From a virus: DNA of 64,000 nt. The stretch spans positions 96,984 through 160,983 of the IMG/VR virus record IMGVR_UViG_3300042542_003555; one strand, 5' to 3'. Shown here in pieces: positions 56,513-64,000 of the stretch; positions within the stretch are counted from its first letter, which is position 1; each line of letters begins with the position of its first letter. The translations under genes and the position numbers were made by a program. The notes beneath the pieces are model-generated. The model was not told the origin of the DNA. It did not search any database and worked only from the letters and a program-made list of their open reading frames with translations.

Positions 56513-57298
56513 ATGGATCCATTTACACTATTTGCTTTAGCTAATGGTGCAGTACAAGCGGTTAAAAAAGGCTGTGAACTATATAAGGAAATAGCAAGCG
56601 CCACCAATGATGTTAAAGGCGTCCTGAACGATCTTGAGGAACAATTTAATTCTCGTCATAAAGATAAGCCTCCTACTGTTGCTGAGAAAAATCAGTATAT
56701 AACAGAAAAAAACCGCATAATTGAATTAAGCAAACAACAGCCTAATGATGTCTATACGCAGATAGGGGAAGAACTTGGCGTATATTTTGAAAATTATGCA
56801 AAGTGTTCTGCCATCTTTGAGGAAGAAGCAAGACATGACCATGAAGTTTACACAGGAGAAACTAGTCTAGGTAAAAGAGCTTTACAACGGGTTCTTATGG
56901 AAAGCAGATTAAGTGCCATGGAAGCAGAACTTCGTGAGCTTATGGTTTACAACTGTCCTTCGGAATTAGGTGATTTATACACCCGTGTCTATGGTATGAT
57001 GGAGAGGATGAAAAAACAACAGGCTGTAGCATGGACTAAGAAAAGAGAACAAGACAGAAAAGCAGCTAATGTAAAAAGACGTAGGATAGAAAAAATAAGA
57101 TGTGAGGCTTGGAAATATGGGTTGAGTGTTTTTATTATAATCTATTTAACCTGGCTAATATGGGCAGTGGTACAAATAAGAATAGAAGTCTATCCTGAAC
57201 TTGGTCGTTGTTTGATACCAAAAGGTAGTGTAGTATATAATTGGTACAATAACTTAAAATGGATAGATTGTGAGTTTAAACCTAAAGAGGAAAATTAA
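56513..57298 (+). CDS. Helical protein with C-terminal TM segment
   Basis: MDPFTLFALA N-terminus; GGAG RBS; one TM. Confidence 0.7.
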   Translation: MDPFTLFALANGAVQAVKKGCELYKEIASATNDVKGVLNDLEEQFNSRHKDKPPTVAEKNQYITEKNRIIELSKQQPNDVYTQIGEELGVYFENYAKCSAIFEEEARHDHEVYTGETSLGKRALQRVLMESRLSAMEAELRELMVYNCPSELGDLYTRVYGMMERMKKQQAVAWTKKREQDRKAANVKRRRIEKIRCEAWKYGLSVFIIIYLTWLIWAVVQIRIEVYPELGRCLIPKGSVVYNWYNNLKWIDCEFKPKEEN

Positions 57299-57589
57299 AT
57301 GAAGAAGATTTTACTTATCGCTCTAATGCTCGTTTCTAGTTTTACATATTCAGAAGAAAGACAAAAGCCAGTTGCTTGTTATCAACTATCTGAGATGTTG
57401 AATAACCTGAAAACAAATCATGGAGAAAAACTTGATTTTGTTGTTACGAATCAAATGTACAGAAGTTTTATTACCAATATTGCTATGTACAGAAATGAAC
57501 AAACTGGTTCATGGACAATGATAGAGTATGGAGAAAATTTTCAAGGTGAAGGTTGTATTATAGGATCAGGAAAAGACACTACATCATAA
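57299..57589 (+). CDS. Secreted small protein
   Basis: Signal peptide, 2 Cys, GAGG RBS. Confidence 0.65.
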   Translation: MKKILLIALMLVSSFTYSEERQKPVACYQLSEMLNNLKTNHGEKLDFVVTNQMYRSFITNIAMYRNEQTGSWTMIEYGENFQGEGCIIGSGKDTTS

Positions 57590-57590
57590 T

Positions 57591-57664
57591 TGGTTGCGGG
57601 CCCAAGATTCGAACAAGGAACTGAGGATTATGAGTCCTCTGTGATACCGTTTCACCAACCCGCC
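57591..57664 (-). tRNA. tRNA-Met(CAT), initiator-like (G1-A72 mismatch)
   Basis: GAGGA-CT-CAT-AA-TCCTC; encoded CCA. Confidence 0.8.
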
Positions 57665-57674
57665 ATATATTTAG

Positions 57675-57757
57675 TGGTGCGAGTAGACGGATTTGAACCG
57701 TCACGCCGAAGCGGGAGATTTTAAGTCTCCTGTGTATACCAATTTCACCATACTCGC
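57675..57757 (-). tRNA. tRNA-Leu(TAA)
   Basis: GGAGA-CT-TAA-AA-TCTCC; long variable arm; CCA. Confidence 0.9.
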
Positions 57758-57764
57758 ATTATTT

Positions 57765-57841
57765 TGGTGCCCCAGAGGAGAGTCGAACTCCTAAAATTTG
57801 GCTTCTAAGACCAACACGTATACCAGTTCCGTCACCGGGGC
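57765..57841 (-). tRNA. tRNA-Leu(TAG), short variable loop
   Basis: TTGGT-CT-TAG-AA-GCCAA; CCA. Confidence 0.85.
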
Positions 57842-58005
57842 ATAAATACTTTTATGAACTACGACTACTACGAACGAACTTTTGGCCGTCATGCCTCTTA
57901 TACTAGTGATACAAAAGGAAAAAATTTCATTCCTATGTATAACGAAATACCTAAAGAACACTATGAGTTTGTGCCAATGAGATGGCCAACTTATGGTGAA
58001 ACTTT

Positions 58006-58081
58006 TGGTGCACCCTCTAAGAATCGAACTTAGTTCATCGGTTCTTCAAACCGCTGCTATGACCACATCAGCTAAAGGTGC
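58006..58081 (-). tRNA. tRNA-Phe(GAA)
   Basis: CGGT-TT-GAA-GA-ACCG; CCA. Confidence 0.85.
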
Positions 58082-58082
58082 T

Positions 58083-58157
58083 TGGTGCATCGTGATGGAT
58101 TCGAACCAACGACAACCTGCTTGTAAGGCAGGGACTCTACCACTGAGCTAACGATGC
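58083..58157 (-). tRNA. tRNA-Val(TAC)
   Basis: CCTGC-CT-TAC-AA-GCAGG; CCA. Confidence 0.9.
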
Positions 58158-58158
58158 T

Positions 58159-58404
58159 TTAATCAAATATTCCAATAATTTCATCGACATTTATTTGATA
58201 CAAATTATCCATTAATTTAGTTGCTTTATTCCAATTAATTAAAAGAATATTGTTAACTTCAACATCAGTAACTTCTGGTCCAATTGCAATAACTCTTGCT
58301 TTATCTGCCTCATCATTACTTTTAAGAATAATACCAGATGATGTGGTCAATTCTTTTTCAAGTTTTTCTACTATAACATTATTTCTAAGAGGTGTCAAGT
58401 TCAT
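58159..58404 (-). CDS. groES: Co-chaperonin GroES
   Basis: LTPLRNNVIV, TTSSGIIL, VIAIGP. Confidence 0.85.
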   Translation of the reverse strand: MNLTPLRNNVIVEKLEKELTTSSGIILKSNDEADKARVIAIGPEVTDVEVNNILLINWNKATKLMDNLYQINVDEIIGIFD

Positions 58405-58422
58405 TTTAATATTCCTTTTAAT

Positions 58423-58893
58423 TTAAGCCGCCAATACTTCTTTCAATCTATCTGCTGCATAAGAAGCCGCAAATGCTCTTGGCTTTACCATAGGTATCAC
58501 ATTACATGTACCACGAATATAACCAACTGCTTGTTGAATGACACAAGATGATCCATGCATTTCATTAGGATTAATATCTAAGTGTACTTCAACATAACGA
58601 TTTTCTAATACATCAGCAAGACTTTGAAACAGTTCTGATACTTTATATACTTCATTCATCAAACGCATAGAAGGACGATCCTTACGTTGATCATAATCTC
58701 TTTCTCTTGTTACTTCACCAAAAATTTTACAACCATGGCGACCATCTATATGTACAACAATTGCTGTTGTGTAATCTGCATACCAAACACCATTCATATT
58801 AAATCTTTCGGAGTCTGCACCTAGATAGATTTTTGTTTCTGGTGACTGAGCAAGAATATACTCTTTTACTTCCTCTAGATTTAATTTTTTCAT
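58423..58893 (-). CDS. RNase H-like YkuK/DUF458 family protein
   Basis: IYLGADS, RLMNEV, EVHLDIN, KPRAFAASYAAD. Confidence 0.8.
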   Translation of the reverse strand: MKKLNLEEVKEYILAQSPETKIYLGADSERFNMNGVWYADYTTAIVVHIDGRHGCKIFGEVTRERDYDQRKDRPSMRLMNEVYKVSELFQSLADVLENRYVEVHLDINPNEMHGSSCVIQQAVGYIRGTCNVIPMVKPRAFAASYAADRLKEVLAA

Positions 58894-58911
58894 TTTGTTC
58901 CTCTATGTTGT

Positions 58912-58985
58912 TGGCTCCGGTGGAGGGAATCGAACCCCCACTAACGGTTTTGGAGACCGCCGCACTGCCATTATACTACACCGGA
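58912..58985 (-). tRNA. tRNA-Trp(CCA)
   Basis: GCGGT-CT-CCA-AA-ACCGT; CCA. Confidence 0.9.
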
Positions 58986-58986
58986 A

Positions 58987-59253
58987 TCATTTTTTATCTA
59001 ATGTATTAATTTCATTAGTAATGTAATCACCAGATTTATCACTAATTCTATTCATTTCTTTTAGTGCATCTAACACACAATCTTCTGTACTTAGGATATC
59101 TTGAAAATCTGAAGAACTTTTTTTAATGTTGCACTTACATTTTTCACATTTACATTCTTTTTCTTTTTTAAAGATTTTGTCCCAGTTGTCATTATATGTT
59201 TTTTGATCCACACTGAATGGTCTGGGATTACTTCCTTTGCCACCATCAGACAT
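58987..59253 (-). CDS. Hypothetical protein (GGKGSxPRP...YxDNWDKIF motif)
   Basis: AGGAG RBS; motif common in small phage proteins. Confidence 0.65.
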   Translation of the reverse strand: MSDGGKGSNPRPFSVDQKTYNDNWDKIFKKEKECKCEKCKCNIKKSSSDFQDILSTEDCVLDALKEMNRISDKSGDYITNEINTLDKK

Positions 59254-59273
59254 ATTTAACTCCTATTAAAAAT

Positions 59274-59347
59274 TGGTCCTCTCTGATGGTAACGATCCAA
59301 CGTCTACCGCTTATCAAGCGGGTGCTCTACCTTTGAGCTAAGAGAGG
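59274..59347 (-). tRNA. tRNA-Ile(GAT)
   Basis: CCGC-TT-GAT-AA-GCGG; atypical T-loop; CCA. Confidence 0.85.
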
Positions 59348-59349
59348 AA

Positions 59350-59425
59350 TGGCCGGTCCTGAAGGAATCGAACCTCCACCTGTAGGTCCGTAGCCTACCG
59401 TAATCATCCATTTTACTAAGGACCG
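59350..59425 (-). tRNA. tRNA-Arg(ACG)
   Basis: GTAGG-CT-ACG-GA-CCTAC; CCA. Confidence 0.9.
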
Positions 59426-59430
59426 ATAAT

Positions 59431-59589
59431 AAATTTATAGCCGGTGTGTACACATTGAGGCATCACCCTCTCCCGACACTCCGTTCACTAAGCACAGCCG
59501 TTCACTAATTCCTGATTGATGGTCAGTTTTCGTTAATACTAAGCCATGTAGTCATCCTTCCCACTGGACTCTGCTCCTGCTATAAATTT
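59431..59589 (-). ncRNA. Stem-enclosed structured RNA of unknown family
   Basis: 11-bp terminal inverted repeat AAATTTATAGC/GCTATAAATTT between two tRNAs; no ORF of 60 aa or more. Confidence 0.6.
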
Positions 59590-59664
59590 TGGTGGTAATG
59601 GAGAGATTCGAACTCCCAACACACACCGTATGAAGGTGCTGCACTACCATTGTGCTACATTACC
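59590..59664 (-). tRNA. tRNA-Met(CAT), elongator (Ile2 not excluded)
   Basis: GCACC-TT-CAT-AC-GGTGT; CCA. Confidence 0.85.
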
Positions 59665-59668
59665 TAAT

Positions 59669-59745
59669 TGGTCTGAGTAGAGAGGATCGAACTCCCGACC
59701 TCCTGCTCCCAAAGCAGGCGCACTACCAGGCTGTGCTATACTCAG
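59669..59745 (-). tRNA. tRNA-Pro(TGG)
   Basis: CCTGC-TT-TGG-GA-GCAGG; CCA. Confidence 0.9.
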
Positions 59746-59752
59746 ATAAAAC

Positions 59753-59826
59753 TGGAGCGGGATATCAGAATCGAACTGATAACAGGAGCTTGGAAGGCTC
59801 ACGTTTTACCATTAAACTAATCCCGC
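59753..59826 (-). tRNA. tRNA-Gly(TCC)
   Basis: GAGC-CT-TCC-AA-GCTC; U73; CCA. Confidence 0.9.
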
Positions 59827-59829
59827 ATT

Positions 59830-59903
59830 TGGTGCCGCTTGATGGAATCGAACCAACGATTGATGCTTACAAGGCAACTGTTATGCCATTTAACTAAAGC
59901 GGC
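59830..59903 (-). tRNA. tRNA-Thr(TGT)
   Basis: TGC-CT-TGT-AA-GCA; CCA. Confidence 0.85.
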
Positions 59904-60643
59904 TATAATGCTTCAATAATTTTTTTACCTACTCGTTGTACATCTCTGGTATTTCTTTCACCTAAGATGACTATTGTATATTTCTCGCCATTTTTTGTCA
60001 AGAGCATTGCCAGACATTTGCCGGCAGCATTAGTGAAGCCAGTTTTTGATATCTCAATTTCTTTATATTCTTTTAATAAGTTATAATTTGTATTTTGAAC
60101 TACCAAATTACGTTTTACTTTTCTTCTTGTATATTGTGTTACATGCATTTGTTCTATTGCTGCAAGATTTTTCATTGTGTCAAAATTATATGCATAATTT
60201 AATAATATTGATAAATCTCTTGCGTTGCTTATATTATTTCTTCCTATACCAGAAGGATCTTCATATTGCGTATGAATCATTCCTAACTGTTCTGCTTTGT
60301 GATTCATGTTAGCAATAAAACTACTTCTGCCGCCTGAGTGTGCTTTTGCTAAAGCTTCGGCGGCTTGATTATCACTTTTAACTAATAATAATTTTAACAA
60401 TTCTTCTCTACTTAACTCTTTTCTACCCAAAAAACCTCTGTAGGAAACTTTTTCGTTTAATGATGCACCACTTTCAATAACAACAATTGCAGTCATTAGT
60501 TTTGTAACACTTGCAATTGGTCTTACTCTTTCAGATGCATATTCATGTACTACTTCATCTTTTGTTACATTATAAACATAAGTTGTTGCAGATGATACAT
60601 GTGCCGACAATAATAAAGATAAAATGAGAATTAATTTTTTCAT
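59903..60643 (-). CDS. D-alanyl-D-alanine carboxypeptidase/endopeptidase (peptidase S11, PBP5/PBP7-like)
   Basis: Signal peptide; SVTK (SxxK), SDN (SxN) and KTG motifs. Confidence 0.88.
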   Translation of the reverse strand: MKKLILILSLLLSAHVSSATTYVYNVTKDEVVHEYASERVRPIASVTKLMTAIVVIESGASLNEKVSYRGFLGRKELSREELLKLLLVKSDNQAAEALAKAHSGGRSSFIANMNHKAEQLGMIHTQYEDPSGIGRNNISNARDLSILLNYAYNFDTMKNLAAIEQMHVTQYTRRKVKRNLVVQNTNYNLLKEYKEIEISKTGFTNAAGKCLAMLLTKNGEKYTIVILGERNTRDVQRVGKKIIEAL

Positions 60644-60668
60644 CTTTGTTCCTGTGTGTGTAAAGGTT

Positions 60669-60676
60669 TATTTATG
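60669..60676 (-). promoter_or_regulatory. Late-promoter-like CATAAATA overlapping the tRNA-Ala CCA end
   Basis: One mismatch to TATAAATA, about 25 nt before the S11 peptidase ATG. Confidence 0.45.
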
Positions 60677-60748
60677 GTGGAGGATAACAGAATCGAACTG
60701 TTAATCTCGGCTTGCAAAGCCGATGTTATCCCATTTAACTAATCCCCC
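60675..60748 (-). tRNA. tRNA-Ala(TGC)
   Basis: TCGGC-TT-TGC-AA-GCCGA; G3-U70; CCA. Confidence 0.9.
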
Positions 60749-60766
60749 GACCGCCTCACACGCTAC

Positions 60767-60852
60767 TGGTGGGTGCTCTCCGATTCGAACAGAGAAGGCC
60801 TAGACAACGGATTTACAGTCCGCCCCCGATACCATTACGGGACTAAACACCC
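60767..60852 (-). tRNA. tRNA-Tyr(GTA)
   Basis: GCGGA-CT-GTA-AA-TCCGT; long variable arm; CCA. Confidence 0.9.
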
Positions 60853-60859
60853 TAAAACT

Positions 60860-60934
60860 TGGCTCCGGAGGTTGGGATCGAACCAACGACATATGGATTA
60901 ACAGTCCACCGTTCTACCACTGAACTACACCGGA
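60860..60934 (-). tRNA. tRNA-Asn(GTT)
   Basis: GTGGA-CT-GTT-AA-TCCAT; CCA. Confidence 0.9.
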
Positions 60935-60941
60935 ATAAATT

Positions 60942-61018
60942 TGGCGACACTTAGGGAATTCGAATCCCTGACCTCTGCCGTGACAGGGCAGCGTTCTAAC
61001 CAACTGAACTAAAGTGCC
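60942..61018 (-). tRNA. tRNA-Asp(GTC)
   Basis: CTGCC-CT-GTC-AC-GGCAG; CCA. Confidence 0.9.
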
Positions 61019-61023
61019 ATAAT

Positions 61024-61156
61024 AATATGGTGATTGGACGCCACGCCAACTTTCTGCTTACCACAAGGATGCCTTTCGGCTTCGCATTACTGGGTTGTTT
61101 CAGCGCACAGCCACTATACAGTGACCAAATCCCTTACCTTGCTTCTTCACCATATT
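61024..61156 (-). ncRNA. Stem-enclosed structured RNA of unknown family
   Basis: 10-bp terminal IR AATATGGTGA/TCACCATATT; internal GCC-GAAA-GGC hairpin. Confidence 0.55.
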
Positions 61157-61228
61157 GAAACACACTGGGACTCCATTGGAGTGAATTATCTTCGGAACAA
61201 CCCTTAGAACCAATGTGTTTCAATATGG
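61150..61228 (-). ncRNA. tRNA-Lys 3'-trailer stem cassette (three-way junction)
   Basis: 19-bp IR (one G-U on the minus strand) starting at the tRNA CCA; two internal hairpins. Confidence 0.6.
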
Positions 61229-61300
61229 TAGGTGCGGAGAATTTCGAAATCTCGACTTACCGGTTAAAAGCCGGTTACTCTGCCTCTGAGTTACGCACCC
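61226..61300 (-). tRNA. tRNA-Lys(TTT)
   Basis: ACCGG-CT-TTT-AA-CCGGT; CCA. Confidence 0.9.
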
Positions 61301-61329
61301 ATTATCTTATCACTCTTGTCACTATCCAT
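61291..61329 (-). CDS. 12-aa mini-ORF MDSDKSDKIMGA ending inside tRNA-Lys
   Basis: AAGGAG RBS 7 nt before ATG. Confidence 0.4.
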   Translation of the reverse strand: MDSDKSDKIMGA

Positions 61330-61355
61330 AACAGGACTCCTTTTTAAAAAATTAA

Positions 61356-61573
61356 TCTTGCTTAGGCTACTTGTTTTCCACGCAAGCCCCTATGCTGAGT
61401 TGTTACCCTGTCCACATTATGTTGAGCATTTGTCACGCATAATGAACGCTGCTATGTTGTTTGAAACACCGGAAACGCCGATTTCGCAGAGTTTATGTTT
61501 CGCTGACGGTGCCATAGCCACCGGGACTCTCTCGTTTACCACACGCTACTTTCAGGAAAGTAGTAACCGGAAC
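61356..61573 (-). ncRNA. About 220-nt multi-stem structured RNA (possibly manA-motif-like)
   Basis: Hairpins CTACTTT/AAAGTAG, CGGTG/CACCG, CATTATG/CATAATG, TAGG..CTTG/CAAG..CCTA. Confidence 0.55.
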
Positions 61574-61625
61574 TTATATGGTATAATCTACCAAGCATAT
61601 TGTGCTTGTATCACAGTTAGTTATA

Positions 61626-61774
61626 CCATATTAAAGTATTATCTGCTCAATTTAGGAAATTGGTGCGCTTGCCATCCATAGCCGAGAGCGGTTATATTAG
61701 GATCAGTCGCCGGCTGCTTTGACCCGAATAGTGTATGCGTCCATACACGATACCCTGATAATACTTTAATATGG
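61626..61774 (-). ncRNA. tRNA-Glu 3'-trailer stem cassette with possible pseudoknot
   Basis: 18-bp perfect IR starting at the tRNA CCA; internal GTGTATG/CATACAC and GGGTCA/TGATCC stems; loop AGCCG complementary to downstream CGGCT. Confidence 0.6.
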
Positions 61775-61846
61775 CACACCCAACCGGATTCGAACCGGTG
61801 TTACTGCCGTGAAAGGGCAATGTCCTGACCACTAGACGATGGGTGC
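61772..61846 (-). tRNA. tRNA-Glu(TTC)
   Basis: TTGCC-CT-TTC-AC-GGCAG; CCA. Confidence 0.9.
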
Positions 61847-61890
61847 ATCGTATTGCTAAATTGTTAAAGAAACTCAACTACAGAAACATC

Positions 61891-61919
61891 ATTGTACACT
61901 GGCTCAATCGTTTTGTCAA
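61891..61919 (-). promoter_or_regulatory. Internal sigma70 promoter of the tRNA array
   Basis: TTGACA(61919-61914)-N17-TACAAT(61896-61891). Confidence 0.8.
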
Positions 61920-61958
61920 GCGTGTTGTACAAATACAACATGTTGCTACTTTTGCAAC

Positions 61959-62036
61959 TGGAGCAACGGGTCAGATTCGAACTGACGGTTTTAAGGTTTT
62001 GCAGACCTTTGCATTGGGCCACTCTGCCACCGTTGC
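61959..62036 (-). tRNA. tRNA-Cys(GCA)
   Basis: AAGGT-CT-GCA-AA-ACCTT; U73; CCA. Confidence 0.9.
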
Positions 62037-62042
62037 GTCAAC

Positions 62043-62132
62043 TGGTCCTTCGGTGTGGAGTCGAACCACATCCTGGGTCTTATCTGGACAAATGCTTATA
62101 AGGCATCCTGCTCTACCGTGAGCTACCGAAGG
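62043..62132 (-). tRNA. tRNA-Ile(TAT) with an abnormally long variable region
   Basis: GATGC-CT-TAT-AA-GCATT; acceptor CCTTCGG/CCGAAGG, A73, CCA; about 20-nt variable region. Confidence 0.75.
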
Positions 62133-62191
62133 TCATTCTTAAATATAAAATAAAGAAGCAAAAAAATGATAACTACAACTATCGCAGCCAT
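62123..62191 (-). CDS. 22-aa hydrophobic mini-ORF MAAIVVVIIFLLLYFIFKNDLR ending inside tRNA-Ile(TAT)
   Basis: AGGAAAGGAG RBS; TM-like peptide. An alternative ATG 4 nt upstream gives an 18-aa ORF in another frame. Confidence 0.4.
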   Translation of the reverse strand: MAAIVVVIIFLLLYFIFKNDLR

Positions 62192-62223
62192 TCATAATTA
62201 CTCCTTTCCTTTTGTTCGTTAAT

Positions 62224-62316
62224 TGGCGGAGATAGTTGGATTCGAACCAACGGATCATTTTTAAGATGATCGACGGTTTAGCAAACCGCTGCCTTAAGCC
62301 TCTCAGCCATATCTCC
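62224..62316 (-). tRNA. tRNA-Ser(GCT)
   Basis: GCGGT-TT-GCT-AA-ACCGT; long variable arm; G73; CCA. Confidence 0.9.
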
Positions 62317-62421
62317 TACTATTACTGCAAACTTATAAAACGAAAACATCACAGTAGCCATAAAAAAGCCCATTGCTATCCAATAACCTAATATTGTTAA
62401 TACAATTATTGCTATAGACAT
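62278..62421 (-). CDS. 47-aa membrane peptide ending inside tRNA-Ser(GCT)
   Basis: AGGAGA RBS; MSIAIIVLTILGYWIAMGFF... Confidence 0.45.
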   Translation of the reverse strand: MSIAIIVLTILGYWIAMGFFMATVMFSFYKFAVIVGDMAERLKAAVC

Positions 62422-62435
62422 TTGTTCTCCTATAT

Positions 62436-62520
62436 CCATAGTAAAACACATTCTTGGATTCTCGTAACAGTAATCCATGACCCCGGGCGTCATTATGTGT
62501 TTGAATGTGTTTTACTATGG
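62436..62520 (-). ncRNA. tRNA-Ser(TGA) 3'-trailer stem cassette (three-way junction)
   Basis: 18-bp perfect IR starting at the tRNA CCA; internal ATGAC/GTCAT and GGATT/AATCC hairpins. Confidence 0.6.
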
Positions 62521-62605
62521 CGGAAGCGGTGAGATTCGAACTCACGGACCTTTTACAGTCGGCAGTTTTCAAGACTGCTGATTTAAACCACTCATCCACA
62601 CTTCC
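62518..62605 (-). tRNA. tRNA-Ser(TGA)
   Basis: GCAGT-CT-TGA-AA-ACTGC; long variable arm; CCA. Confidence 0.9.
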
Positions 62606-62614
62606 ATAAATCTT

Positions 62615-62689
62615 TGGGGTGTCTAACGAGTACCGACCTCGTACCTACTCTTTCACAGAGAGTAATGCTACCACTACACCATAGACACC
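62615..62689 (-). tRNA. tRNA-His(GTG)
   Basis: ACTCT-CT-GTG-AA-AGAGT; G-1:C73; atypical T-loop; CCA. Confidence 0.88.
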
Positions 62690-62691
62690 AC

Positions 62692-62765
62692 TGGCAGGGA
62701 CATTAGGATTCGAACCTAAACTAACAGAGTCAAAGTCTGCGGTGCTGCCGTTACACTATGTCCCA
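62692..62765 (-). tRNA. tRNA-Gln(TTG)
   Basis: GCAGA-CT-TTG-AC-TCTGT; CCA; first tRNA after the attenuator. Confidence 0.9.
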
Positions 62766-62769
62766 ATAT

Positions 62770-62803
62770 AAACAAAAAACCCCTAGTTTTTACGCTAGGG
62801 GTC
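62770..62803 (-). terminator. Intrinsic terminator of the putative attenuator
   Basis: GACCCCTAG-CGTAAAAA-CTAGGGGTT-TTTTGTTT. Confidence 0.85.
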
Positions 62804-62843
62804 TTGTGTTTAGATTAAGATTTCTAGTCTATACACGGACCCC
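62798..62843 (-). promoter_or_regulatory. Antiterminator hairpin of the putative attenuator
   Basis: GGGGTC-C-GTGT-A-TAGA (end of leader ORF) pairs with TCTA-A-ACAC-AA-GACCCC, sequestering the terminator 5' arm. Confidence 0.75.
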
Positions 62844-62924
62844 AAAGGCGAACCATGACGCATCACCACAATTAATTGTGTGATACTCTGGCTGACTTAT
62901 AATGGGTTTGCGTATGGACAACAT
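62829..62924 (-). CDS. Attenuator leader peptide containing all 20 amino acids (MLSIRKPIISQPEYHTINCGDASWFAFGVRV)
   Basis: Lies between promoter and terminator; AGAAAG SD-like element. The 63-aa version in the ORF track starts upstream of the promoter and is unlikely. Confidence 0.75.
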   Translation of the reverse strand: MLSIRKPIISQPEYHTINCGDASWFAFGVRV

Positions 62925-62957
62925 TGTAATCTTTCTAACTAAATTTAATATGTTAAC

Positions 62958-62986
62958 AGTATATAGTAAACTTTTTGGTTTGTCAA
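62958..62986 (-). promoter_or_regulatory. Sigma70 promoter of the tRNA operon leader
   Basis: AACCC-TTGACA(62986-62981)-N17-TATACT(62963-62958), same consensus as the early promoters. Confidence 0.85.
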
Positions 62987-63004
62987 GGGTTATTTTGATG
63001 TTTT

Positions 63005-63514
63005 TTATGAAACTTTCCATTTTATTGGAATTGAAACTATTGGATCATCAGGATTCTTAAATTCATCAAAGATATTCCAAAGATGATGCATCACTACAAA
63101 TTTATATAATAATCCTGGTTCTCTACCGTATGCATCAATCTCCCAAGGATGATCCCAATAGTCTACCTTACTTTGATCTATCTTTTTATTTTTCCATCTA
63201 GATAATACATCGTCGGTTTCGTTCATGATATATTGTTTAACATGTACCATCTCATGTGCAAGTGTTTCCAATATTAATCTTGCCCCAATTCCCGAATGTA
63301 TCTCTATTAGAAATTCTCTAGGTTGTTTTCCTTTGTTATATCCAGAAATACTGGCATAACCATATTCTTTGATTTTCTTTGTAAAGACAATTTTAGTCTT
63401 ACAGTTATTGCTAATTCTTTTATTTGGGATTAATTCTTGGGCAAAAAAGGAGGCTGCCTCAGACACAAAAGGCTTAAAGTCTTTATCTGGACAATTGACA
63501 ATCTTGAACTGCAT
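63005..63514 (-). CDS. Zincin-like metallopeptidase domain protein
   Basis: TLAHEMVHVKQY...PWEIDAY. Confidence 0.75.
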   Translation of the reverse strand: MQFKIVNCPDKDFKPFVSEAASFFAQELIPNKRISNNCKTKIVFTKKIKEYGYASISGYNKGKQPREFLIEIHSGIGARLILETLAHEMVHVKQYIMNETDDVLSRWKNKKIDQSKVDYWDHPWEIDAYGREPGLLYKFVVMHHLWNIFDEFKNPDDPIVSIPIKWKVS

Positions 63515-63543
63515 CGGTGTTCCTTTGTGTACCTATGCATCAT

Positions 63544-63551
63544 TATTTATA
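63544..63551 (-). promoter_or_regulatory. T4-type late promoter TATAAATA
   Basis: Exact match 30 nt upstream of the 63514 ATG. Confidence 0.6.
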
Positions 63552-63552
63552 T

Positions 63553-63972
63553 TTAACCTCTCTCCGACCCATCTGACGGCTCTGAAGTCTTGAAAATCAT
63601 CACTCCACATTCAGTTAAGAACTTCAATCCATCGCTGGAACGATAATCTTTCTCATAGTATACTGTTTTGATACCAGCGGTAAATATCTGTTTGGCACAG
63701 TCAATACAAGGAGCATGAGTTAAAAACATAGTAGCATCTTTGCCAGATTCTGTGCTTTTGGCCAACTTTGCAATAGCATTGGCTTCCGCATGGATTACTT
63801 CTGGTTTTGTTTTTAGTCCACCATCTTCATTTGTATCTTCACAGATATTACTCCAACCAGATGGCATTCCATTATAACCAATAGAAACAATTCTATCTTC
63901 TTTAACTATAATAGCACCAACTTGTAAACGAACTGCTGATGATAATTCAGCAAATCGTTTTGCTACATCCAT
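63553..63972 (-). CDS. cd: dCMP deaminase (frame stays open to the window edge, so the start may be further upstream)
   Basis: VGAII, GYNG, HAEANAI, PCIDC. Confidence 0.9.
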   Translation of the reverse strand: MDVAKRFAELSSAVRLQVGAIIVKEDRIVSIGYNGMPSGWSNICEDTNEDGGLKTKPEVIHAEANAIAKLAKSTESGKDATMFLTHAPCIDCAKQIFTAGIKTVYYEKDYRSSDGLKFLTECGVMIFKTSEPSDGSERG

Positions 63973-64000
63973 GTATGCTCTAATATATTTAAAGAAGATA

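Follow-up and report, generated by a model that had tools for sequence, protein, structure and literature searches.

The window, that is the whole stretch of DNA analysed here, corresponds to the final 64 kb of an IMG/VR virus record of 160,983 bp with a G+C content of 36%. It contains an array of 23 tRNA genes predicted by ARAGORN, all of them on the minus strand (Table 1). The array is preceded by a sigma-70-like promoter (P1), a short leader open reading frame (ORF) and an intrinsic terminator. P1 matches the consensus at 11 of 12 positions and is located 26 nt upstream of the leader ATG, while 23 nt separate the leader stop codon from the terminator. In this phage, as in its closer relatives, the terminator is followed by tRNA-Gln without an intervening promoter. 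The tRNAs for Gln, His, Ser(UGA), Ser(GCU), Ile(UAU) and Cys hence need read-through of the terminator, because no promoter occurs until the second one at the 3′ side of tRNA-Cys. The presence of tRNA-Ile(UAU) in this attenuated segment had been pointed out in the earlier note on this DNA, and the gene indeed falls within the stretch bounded by the terminator and the second promoter.

Table 1 Features of the leader region and the tRNA array (positions in the window)
Feature	Position	Strand	Description
Promoter P1, sigma-70-like	62958..62986	(-)	TTGACA 62986-62981, 17-nt spacer, TATACT 62963-62958
Shine-Dalgarno-like AGAAAG, weak	62931..62936	(-)	6 nt 5′ of ATG
Leader ORF	62829..62924	(-)	31 sense codons + TAG, MLSIRKPIISQPEYHTINCGDASWFAFGVRV; 20/20 amino acids, 29 distinct codons
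Region 1 (predicted)	62904..62919	(-)	codons 3-7, GUCCAUACGCAAACCC; AAACCC 62909-62904; pairs with region 2, anti-antiterminator
Central hairpin in ORF (predicted)	62845..62896	(-)	codons 10-27, -18.2 kcal/mol; enclosed by 1:2 helix
Region 2 (predicted), antiterminator 5′ arm	62815..62843	(-)	GGGGUC 62843-62838 (Gly28-Val29), last codons, stop, ~14 nt beyond
Region 3 (predicted), antiterminator 3′ arm	62798..62818	(-)	GACCCC 62803-62798 doubles as terminator 5′ arm
Intrinsic terminator	62766..62805	(-)	11-bp G+C-rich stem 62805-62776 + U tract, -16.1 kcal/mol
tRNA array	57591-62765	(-)	23 tRNAs (ARAGORN)
tRNA-Gln(UUG)	62692..62765	(-)	first gene of the array, ~5-10 nt past the terminator U tract
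tRNA-His, Ser(UGA), Ser(GCU), Ile(UAU), Cys	61959..62688	(-)	remaining read-through-dependent genes, before second promoter
Small hydrophobic ORF	62278-62421	(-)	between tRNA-Ser(UGA) and tRNA-Ser(GCU)
tRNA-Ile(UAU)	62043-62132	(-)	90 nt
Second promoter	61919-61891		3′ of tRNA-Cys
Putative tRNA-Tyr(GUA)	~60771-60852	(-)	missed by ARAGORN
S11 D-Ala-D-Ala carboxypeptidase	59903-60643	(-)	within the array

A probable 24th gene of the array, tRNA-Tyr(GUA), was recognized by an acceptor stem GGGTG...CACCC-A-CCA, an anticodon loop CTGTAAA and a long variable arm; in Rfam it gave only a weak tRNA-Sec-like match (29.9 bits). If this gene is counted, the array covers all 20 amino acids.

The leader reads ATG TTG TCC ATA CGC ... 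GTA TAG. The reverse complement of its positions matches the codons quoted in the earlier note, and the reported 29 distinct codons among 31 with all 20 amino acids were confirmed. ATA and ATT, both for Ile, are the only codons used twice, as had been stated; the description of ATA as rare did not hold, as it accounts for 25% of the Ile codons in this phage. Each amino acid occurs one to four times without any runs, Ile being the commonest with four occurrences, and a cluster of regulatory codons for one amino acid is absent. The first 24 codons specify 18 different amino acids, with Phe and Val confined to the last seven codons.

We compared the leader with all ORF-internal windows of 31 codons, 40,882 in total, from 174 crude ORFs of the phage. 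Twenty amino acids were found in four and at least 29 distinct codons in five of these, and none combined both features. Diversity of this kind being common in ordinary windows, which the earlier note had named as a refutation of its interpretation, is therefore not what is seen. In a six-frame scan over 83,646 stop-free windows the leader was likewise the only one with 20 amino acids and at least 29 distinct codons, and among 2,326 short ORFs (25–40 codons) in the 161-kb genome it is the only one encoding 20 amino acids. A chance origin of the leader was rejected, as it is unique within the genome and conserved in relatives. Also rejected as a functional frame was a 63-aa ORF from the ATG at 63020, because it shares sequence with both the promoter and the upstream gene's end and is closed in the related loci L007-L016. 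The leader peptide had no match in Pfam.

The gene upstream of the leader encodes a protein of 169 aa with an HExxH motif that is distantly similar to WLM-like proteins of T4-like phages and has no match in Pfam. In tblastn searches with this gene, named matches were restricted to distant T4-like myoviruses with 26–40% identity, comprising cyanophages, Caulobacter phage Cr30, Methylophilales phage Melnitz and Stenotrophomonas phage DLP6; megablast for named phage relatives returned a tRNA match only. Via the same gene we retrieved 80 related loci from IMG/VR, here given L numbers. Loci with at least 46% identity have tRNA arrays downstream, and most of them possess a short ORF and a terminator at the same site (Table 2). 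The leader is absent from L018-20; in L027 and L028 it is reduced to a degenerate 3′ remnant. P1 is also kept in L002, L007-L016, L023 and L024. The Shine-Dalgarno position is occupied by AGAAAG, AGGAAG, CGAAAG, AAAGGA, AAGGAG or TCGGAG, and no such element was seen at the equivalent place in L026.

Table 2 Leader ORFs in related loci; P values for distinct codons and decoding classes refer to genome codon usage and to the locus in brackets
Loci	Leader length	Amino acids	P, distinct codons	P, decoding classes
L002 type	31 aa	20	0.07 (L002)	0.49 (L002)
L007-16	31 aa	20	0.11 (L007)	0.03 (L007)
L023, L024	31 aa	19	0.18 (L023)	0.10 (L023)
L026	32 aa	19	0.36 (L026)	0.30 (L026)
L030-37	35 aa	20	0.39 (L030)	0.39 (L030)
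L041-44, TTG start after AAGGAG	34 aa	19-20	0.54 (L042)	0.84 (L042)
L017	43 aa	18	0.11 (L017)	0.52 (L017)

The peptide sequence has changed considerably among these leaders, with only 9–14 residues identical to the window's peptide in the diverged relatives, which nevertheless retain 19–20 amino acids. Random drawing of the changed residues according to the phage amino-acid composition gives such retention of diversity a probability of P = 0.0004–0.02 for L023, L030 and L041-43. Two reciprocal swaps were observed. Between the window and L007 the sole His has moved from codon 15 to codon 5 and Arg the opposite way (CGC/CAY), and, relative to L002, the window has Ser-AGT and Ile-ATT exchanged at codons 10 and 17; in both cases the composition of the leader is kept while its sequence changes. 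Judged from these comparisons, the amino-acid diversity of the leader appears to be under selection.

The leader transcript of 186 nt has a minimum free energy of -58.4 kcal/mol (z = -5.9 compared to shuffled sequences). Three helices, 1:2, 2:3 (antiterminator) and 3:4 (terminator), are mutually exclusive in the predicted folds. The full-length RNA folds into the 1:2 helix and a separate terminator, while an RNA ending before the 3′ arm of the terminator refolds to the antiterminator GGGGUC:GACCCC; the predicted stability of the 2:3 helix is -18.6 kcal/mol compared to -16.1 kcal/mol for the terminator. The hairpin in the centre of the ORF may act as an RNA polymerase pause hairpin.

Covariation was analysed in an alignment of 13 distinct leader sequences from related IMG/VR contigs. 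GGGGU is invariant in all 13, and the cores of both the 1:2 and the 2:3 helix use the invariant GGGG. The 2:3 core is paired to 98.7%, five sequences having U-A in place of a C-G pair as a compensatory change, and the 1:2 core ACCC:GGGU is paired in 94% of the cells of the alignment. In the central hairpin a compensatory change from A-U to G-C distinguishes CAC/GGU in the window from CGC/GGC in L007. Moreover, GGG GUY occurs in the same reading frame in all leader lineages, whose ORFs have mostly 31–35 codons despite heavy divergence.

Such a strong and conserved secondary structure could also belong to an untranslated RNA, be it a switch made of RNA alone, a signal for processing or a T-box-like sensor of tRNA, in which the open frame would be incidental. 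The weakness of the Shine-Dalgarno sequence, together with its apparent lack in L026, fits this idea. Yet, the frame stays open from start to stop across lineages, GGG GUY is always in frame and 19–20 amino acids are retained. Furthermore, the matches of positions 57000-64000 in Rfam (E ≤ 1) were limited to tRNAs and to families at chance level, with no T-box among them, and the Stem I/specifier loop and the T-box sequence are absent from the leader. We therefore regard an untranslated RNA as very improbable.

The promoter, the ORF, three competing helices and the terminator, their conservation and covariation, and the retained diversity of amino acids lend good support to a trp-type attenuator whose leader contains every amino acid. 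On balance, we favour the reading that the leader is the sensing ORF of a trp-type, ribosome-mediated attenuator heading the tRNA array, with its codons as a structure-driven by-product. Transcription would begin at P1. A ribosome translating the 31 codons without delay would reach the stop codon and cover region 2, so that the 3:4 terminator forms and most transcripts end before tRNA-Gln. If the ribosome stalls at a hungry codon within the 1:2 loop (approximately codons 1–24), region 2 would be free to pair with region 3; with the 2:3 helix formed, the terminator would be blocked and the tRNA genes would be transcribed. In the complete absence of translation, 1:2 and 3:4 should form and transcription would stop. 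As every amino acid is represented in the leader, a lack of nearly any charged tRNA could increase the output of phage tRNAs, and the attenuator would thus provide negative feedback on decoding capacity. In this way the leader probably lets the phage gauge decoding capacity. We infer from this arrangement that the ORF is translated, in which direction the system responds, which codons signal and that the polymerase pauses at the hairpin.

The composition of the leader also sets expectations for the sensitivity of such a device. According to the kinetic theory of attenuation by Elf and Ehrenberg, single codons confer low sensitivity to mild starvation (PMC1183508). Low sensitivity to mild starvation for a single amino acid is hence expected for the phage leader, as there are only one to four codons for each amino acid and no runs, and the device suits severe loss of tRNAs better. 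Furthermore, a ribosome stalled at Phe or Val would mask GGGGUC and favour termination. Presumably, not all 20 amino acids can therefore signal in the same way, since these two occur only in the last seven codons.

In several distant lineages (L017, L026, L027, L030 and L041-44) a second promoter exists between the terminator and tRNA-Gln. It is strong, with the sequence TTGACA-N17-TACACT or TAGAAT, and is absent from the window's own lineage. In the distant lineages the tRNAs would accordingly have a constitutive supply as well, and an attenuator would supplement it instead of being the sole gate, because this promoter lies past the terminator. It also implies that promoter, 31-codon ORF and terminator can stand alone, and one may ask if they form an independent unit producing a micropeptide or small RNA that acts in trans. 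Precedents are peTrpL and rnTrpL, a leader peptide and a leader RNA of attenuators with functions in trans (PMC7298713, PMC6614838). However, the leading six tRNAs of the array cannot be reached without read-through in this phage or its closer relatives, the peptide has no match in Pfam and its sequence drifts freely while the composition is retained, and the conserved 2:3 alternative would be without purpose in a plain terminator. An independent unit thus seems quite improbable to us.

Returning to the attenuator reading, the choice of synonymous codons needs to be considered separately from the choice of amino acids. The earlier note had gone beyond amino acids in proposing that selection maximises the number of host tRNA species surveyed. 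According to this proposal, synonymous codons have been selected so that repeated amino acids use different tRNAs and the leader polls individual host isoacceptors, which we consider unlikely. It would follow that the loss of a single isoacceptor stalls the ribosome on the leader and switches on the replacement tRNAs of the phage, the trigger being an anticodon nuclease, tRNA cleavage of the PARIS or retron type, or the decay of host tRNAs during infection; we give this extension a small chance as well. It is in line with the known role of phage tRNAs in countering tRNA-cleaving defences (PMC10264068, PMC11464382).

Several of the underlying observations were reproduced. All the synonymous switches that had been listed, for Ser, Pro, Ala, Gly, Val and Ile, are present; two further switches, Arg CGC/CGT and Phe TTC/TTT, were not on that list, and each of these pairs shares one tRNA. 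Under standard wobble rules the leader uses 27 of the 28 NNY/NNR decoding classes open to its peptide, in agreement with the view that repeated amino acids are mostly read by different tRNAs, and in none of the 40,882 ORF windows did the number of classes exceed 24. The reported frequency of G/C-ending codons was found as well, 14 of 31 compared to 8.4 expected from phage usage (P = 0.014), and the codons of the leader are unusually rare by phage usage (log-likelihood P = 0.0014). An enrichment in codons not readable by the phage's own tRNAs was rejected, as five such codons were observed compared to about seven expected from genome usage in an informal count by hand. As an anecdote, the exchange of Ser-AGT and Ile-ATT between the window and L002 has kept the only AGY codon.

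Given the peptide and genome usage, the probability is P = 0.048 for at least 29 distinct codons and 0.040 for at least 27 decoding classes; with flat usage the two values become 0.18 and 0.065. The rarity of the leader stems almost wholly from its amino-acid composition. The L007 lineage uses 28 classes (Table 2), whereas L002, the nearest relative, uses 25, two fewer than the window. When six lineages were pooled, P was 0.008 for codons and 0.018 for classes under genome usage, and 0.39 and 0.056 under flat usage; for the five lineages without the window's leader the values were 0.034 and 0.096 (genome) and 0.57 and 0.19 (flat). These pooled values are optimistic, because the lineages share conserved codons by descent and are not independent. 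A null model built from the pooled codon usage of the leaders themselves gave P = 0.0009, which we discounted, as conserved homologous codons make this usage peaked and the lineages are non-independent. The test had in addition been framed after the pattern was already seen. Codon diversity in homologous leaders did not amount to a consistent excess, with P values of about 0.1–0.9 in distant relatives, in which 29 of 35 (L030), 26 of 32 (L026) and 27 of 34 (L042) codons are distinct. In these distant leaders diversification would have been possible where codons are repeated, as in L030 with its repeats of TTG, TTT, AAT, TCA and ACG. The leaders thus have a flat, G/C-enriched codon usage without demonstrable avoidance of duplicate codons.

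RNA pairing offers another cause for the codon choice. Among 300 synonymous recodings of the leader, none was as stable as the native sequence (mean -39.7 ± 3.3 compared to -54.0 kcal/mol), so that recoding costs about 14 kcal/mol of structure. Of the 14 third positions occupied by G or C, 10 form a base pair in one of the two folds. We then considered a structure-compatible null model, in which only substitutions preserving every pair were allowed. Twelve codons are fixed in this model, including both ATA. Pairing alone splits Pro (CCY/CCR), Gly (GGU/GGG) and Val (GUY/GUR) and separates the Ser codon AGY from UCN. Expected are 27.2 distinct codons and 26.0 classes, compared to 29 and 27 observed (P = 0.09 and 0.27), which argues against the polling of isoacceptors. 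The varied synonymous codons ending in G or C, as far as the predicted folds tell, look mainly like what the three helices require, and the breadth of isoacceptors would be mostly a by-product of amino-acid diversity and pairing constraints. Of the proposed selection for a maximal number of tRNA species, the broad coverage of classes thus stands, while the excess beyond the peptide is marginal and is mostly explained by pairing. Structure is a sufficient explanation of the codon choice without being provably the sole one, and the pooled excess over genome usage leaves room for some selection on codons; sequence alone does not tell whether structure drives the codon choice or the reverse. The interesting property lies at the level of amino acids together with the RNA switch, and polling of isoacceptors is not needed to explain the codons.

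The arrangement resembles the attenuators trpL, hisL, leuL, thrL, pheL and ilvL of E. coli and Salmonella in its promoter-proximal short ORF, the four-region RNA and the mutually exclusive helices, as well as in the placement of the stop codon for masking of region 2 and the intrinsic terminator before the regulated genes. It differs from these attenuators of amino-acid operons by the lack of a run of a single codon, by regulated genes that are tRNAs instead of biosynthetic enzymes, and by being phage-borne. Classical leaders are biased to one particularly sensitive codon (PMC1183508), the opposite of the spreading of codons in the phage leader. T-box riboswitches, located upstream of genes for aminoacyl-tRNA synthetases and amino-acid genes, also couple tRNA status to the choice between terminator and antiterminator, but they bind one uncharged tRNA directly and do not need translation. 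In the leaders of the antibiotic resistance genes vmlR, bmrCD and those of the ermC type, a short ORF likewise reports general slowing of the ribosome and causes read-through; these leaders react to ribosomes that a drug has stalled at certain peptide motifs, and they are not known to have a selected all-amino-acid composition or to control tRNA genes. The element would be a variant of leader-peptide attenuation, set apart by its lack of a regulatory-codon cluster.

A literature search yielded no published all-amino-acid leader and no attenuator of phage tRNA genes. The large tRNA sets of phages have been explained, so far tentatively, by codon compensation, by substitution for host tRNAs that decay and by evasion of defences that cleave tRNAs (PMC10264068, PMC11464382). 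If the attenuator reading is true, this would be the first described cis-acting device linking the transcription of tRNA genes to the actual decoding capacity, and an all-amino-acid attenuator would sense translation elongation globally, in a natural and compact form.

Some further observations concern the array and its relation to the leader. The tRNA-Ile(UAU) has an unusually long variable arm, and the same gene exists in L002, L007, L012, L015-L019 and L023. ATA codons occur in the leaders of lineages with this tRNA (the window, L002, L007, L017 and L023). The leaders of L030 and L043 are devoid of ATA, and no Ile(UAU) gene is present in the seen part of their arrays; L026 and L042 have one ATA each and no Ile(UAU) in their partial arrays. 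The codons of the leader may hence track the tRNA repertoire of the phage, in a pattern that is confounded by phylogeny. The small hydrophobic ORF between the two tRNA-Ser genes (...IIVLTILGYWIAMGF...FYKFAVI...) is kept in several relatives, and in L007-L016 it is found approximately 426–590 nt past the upstream gene. The S11 D-Ala-D-Ala carboxypeptidase encoded within the array is a secreted protein assigned to Pfam family PF00768 (E = 1.7e-37).
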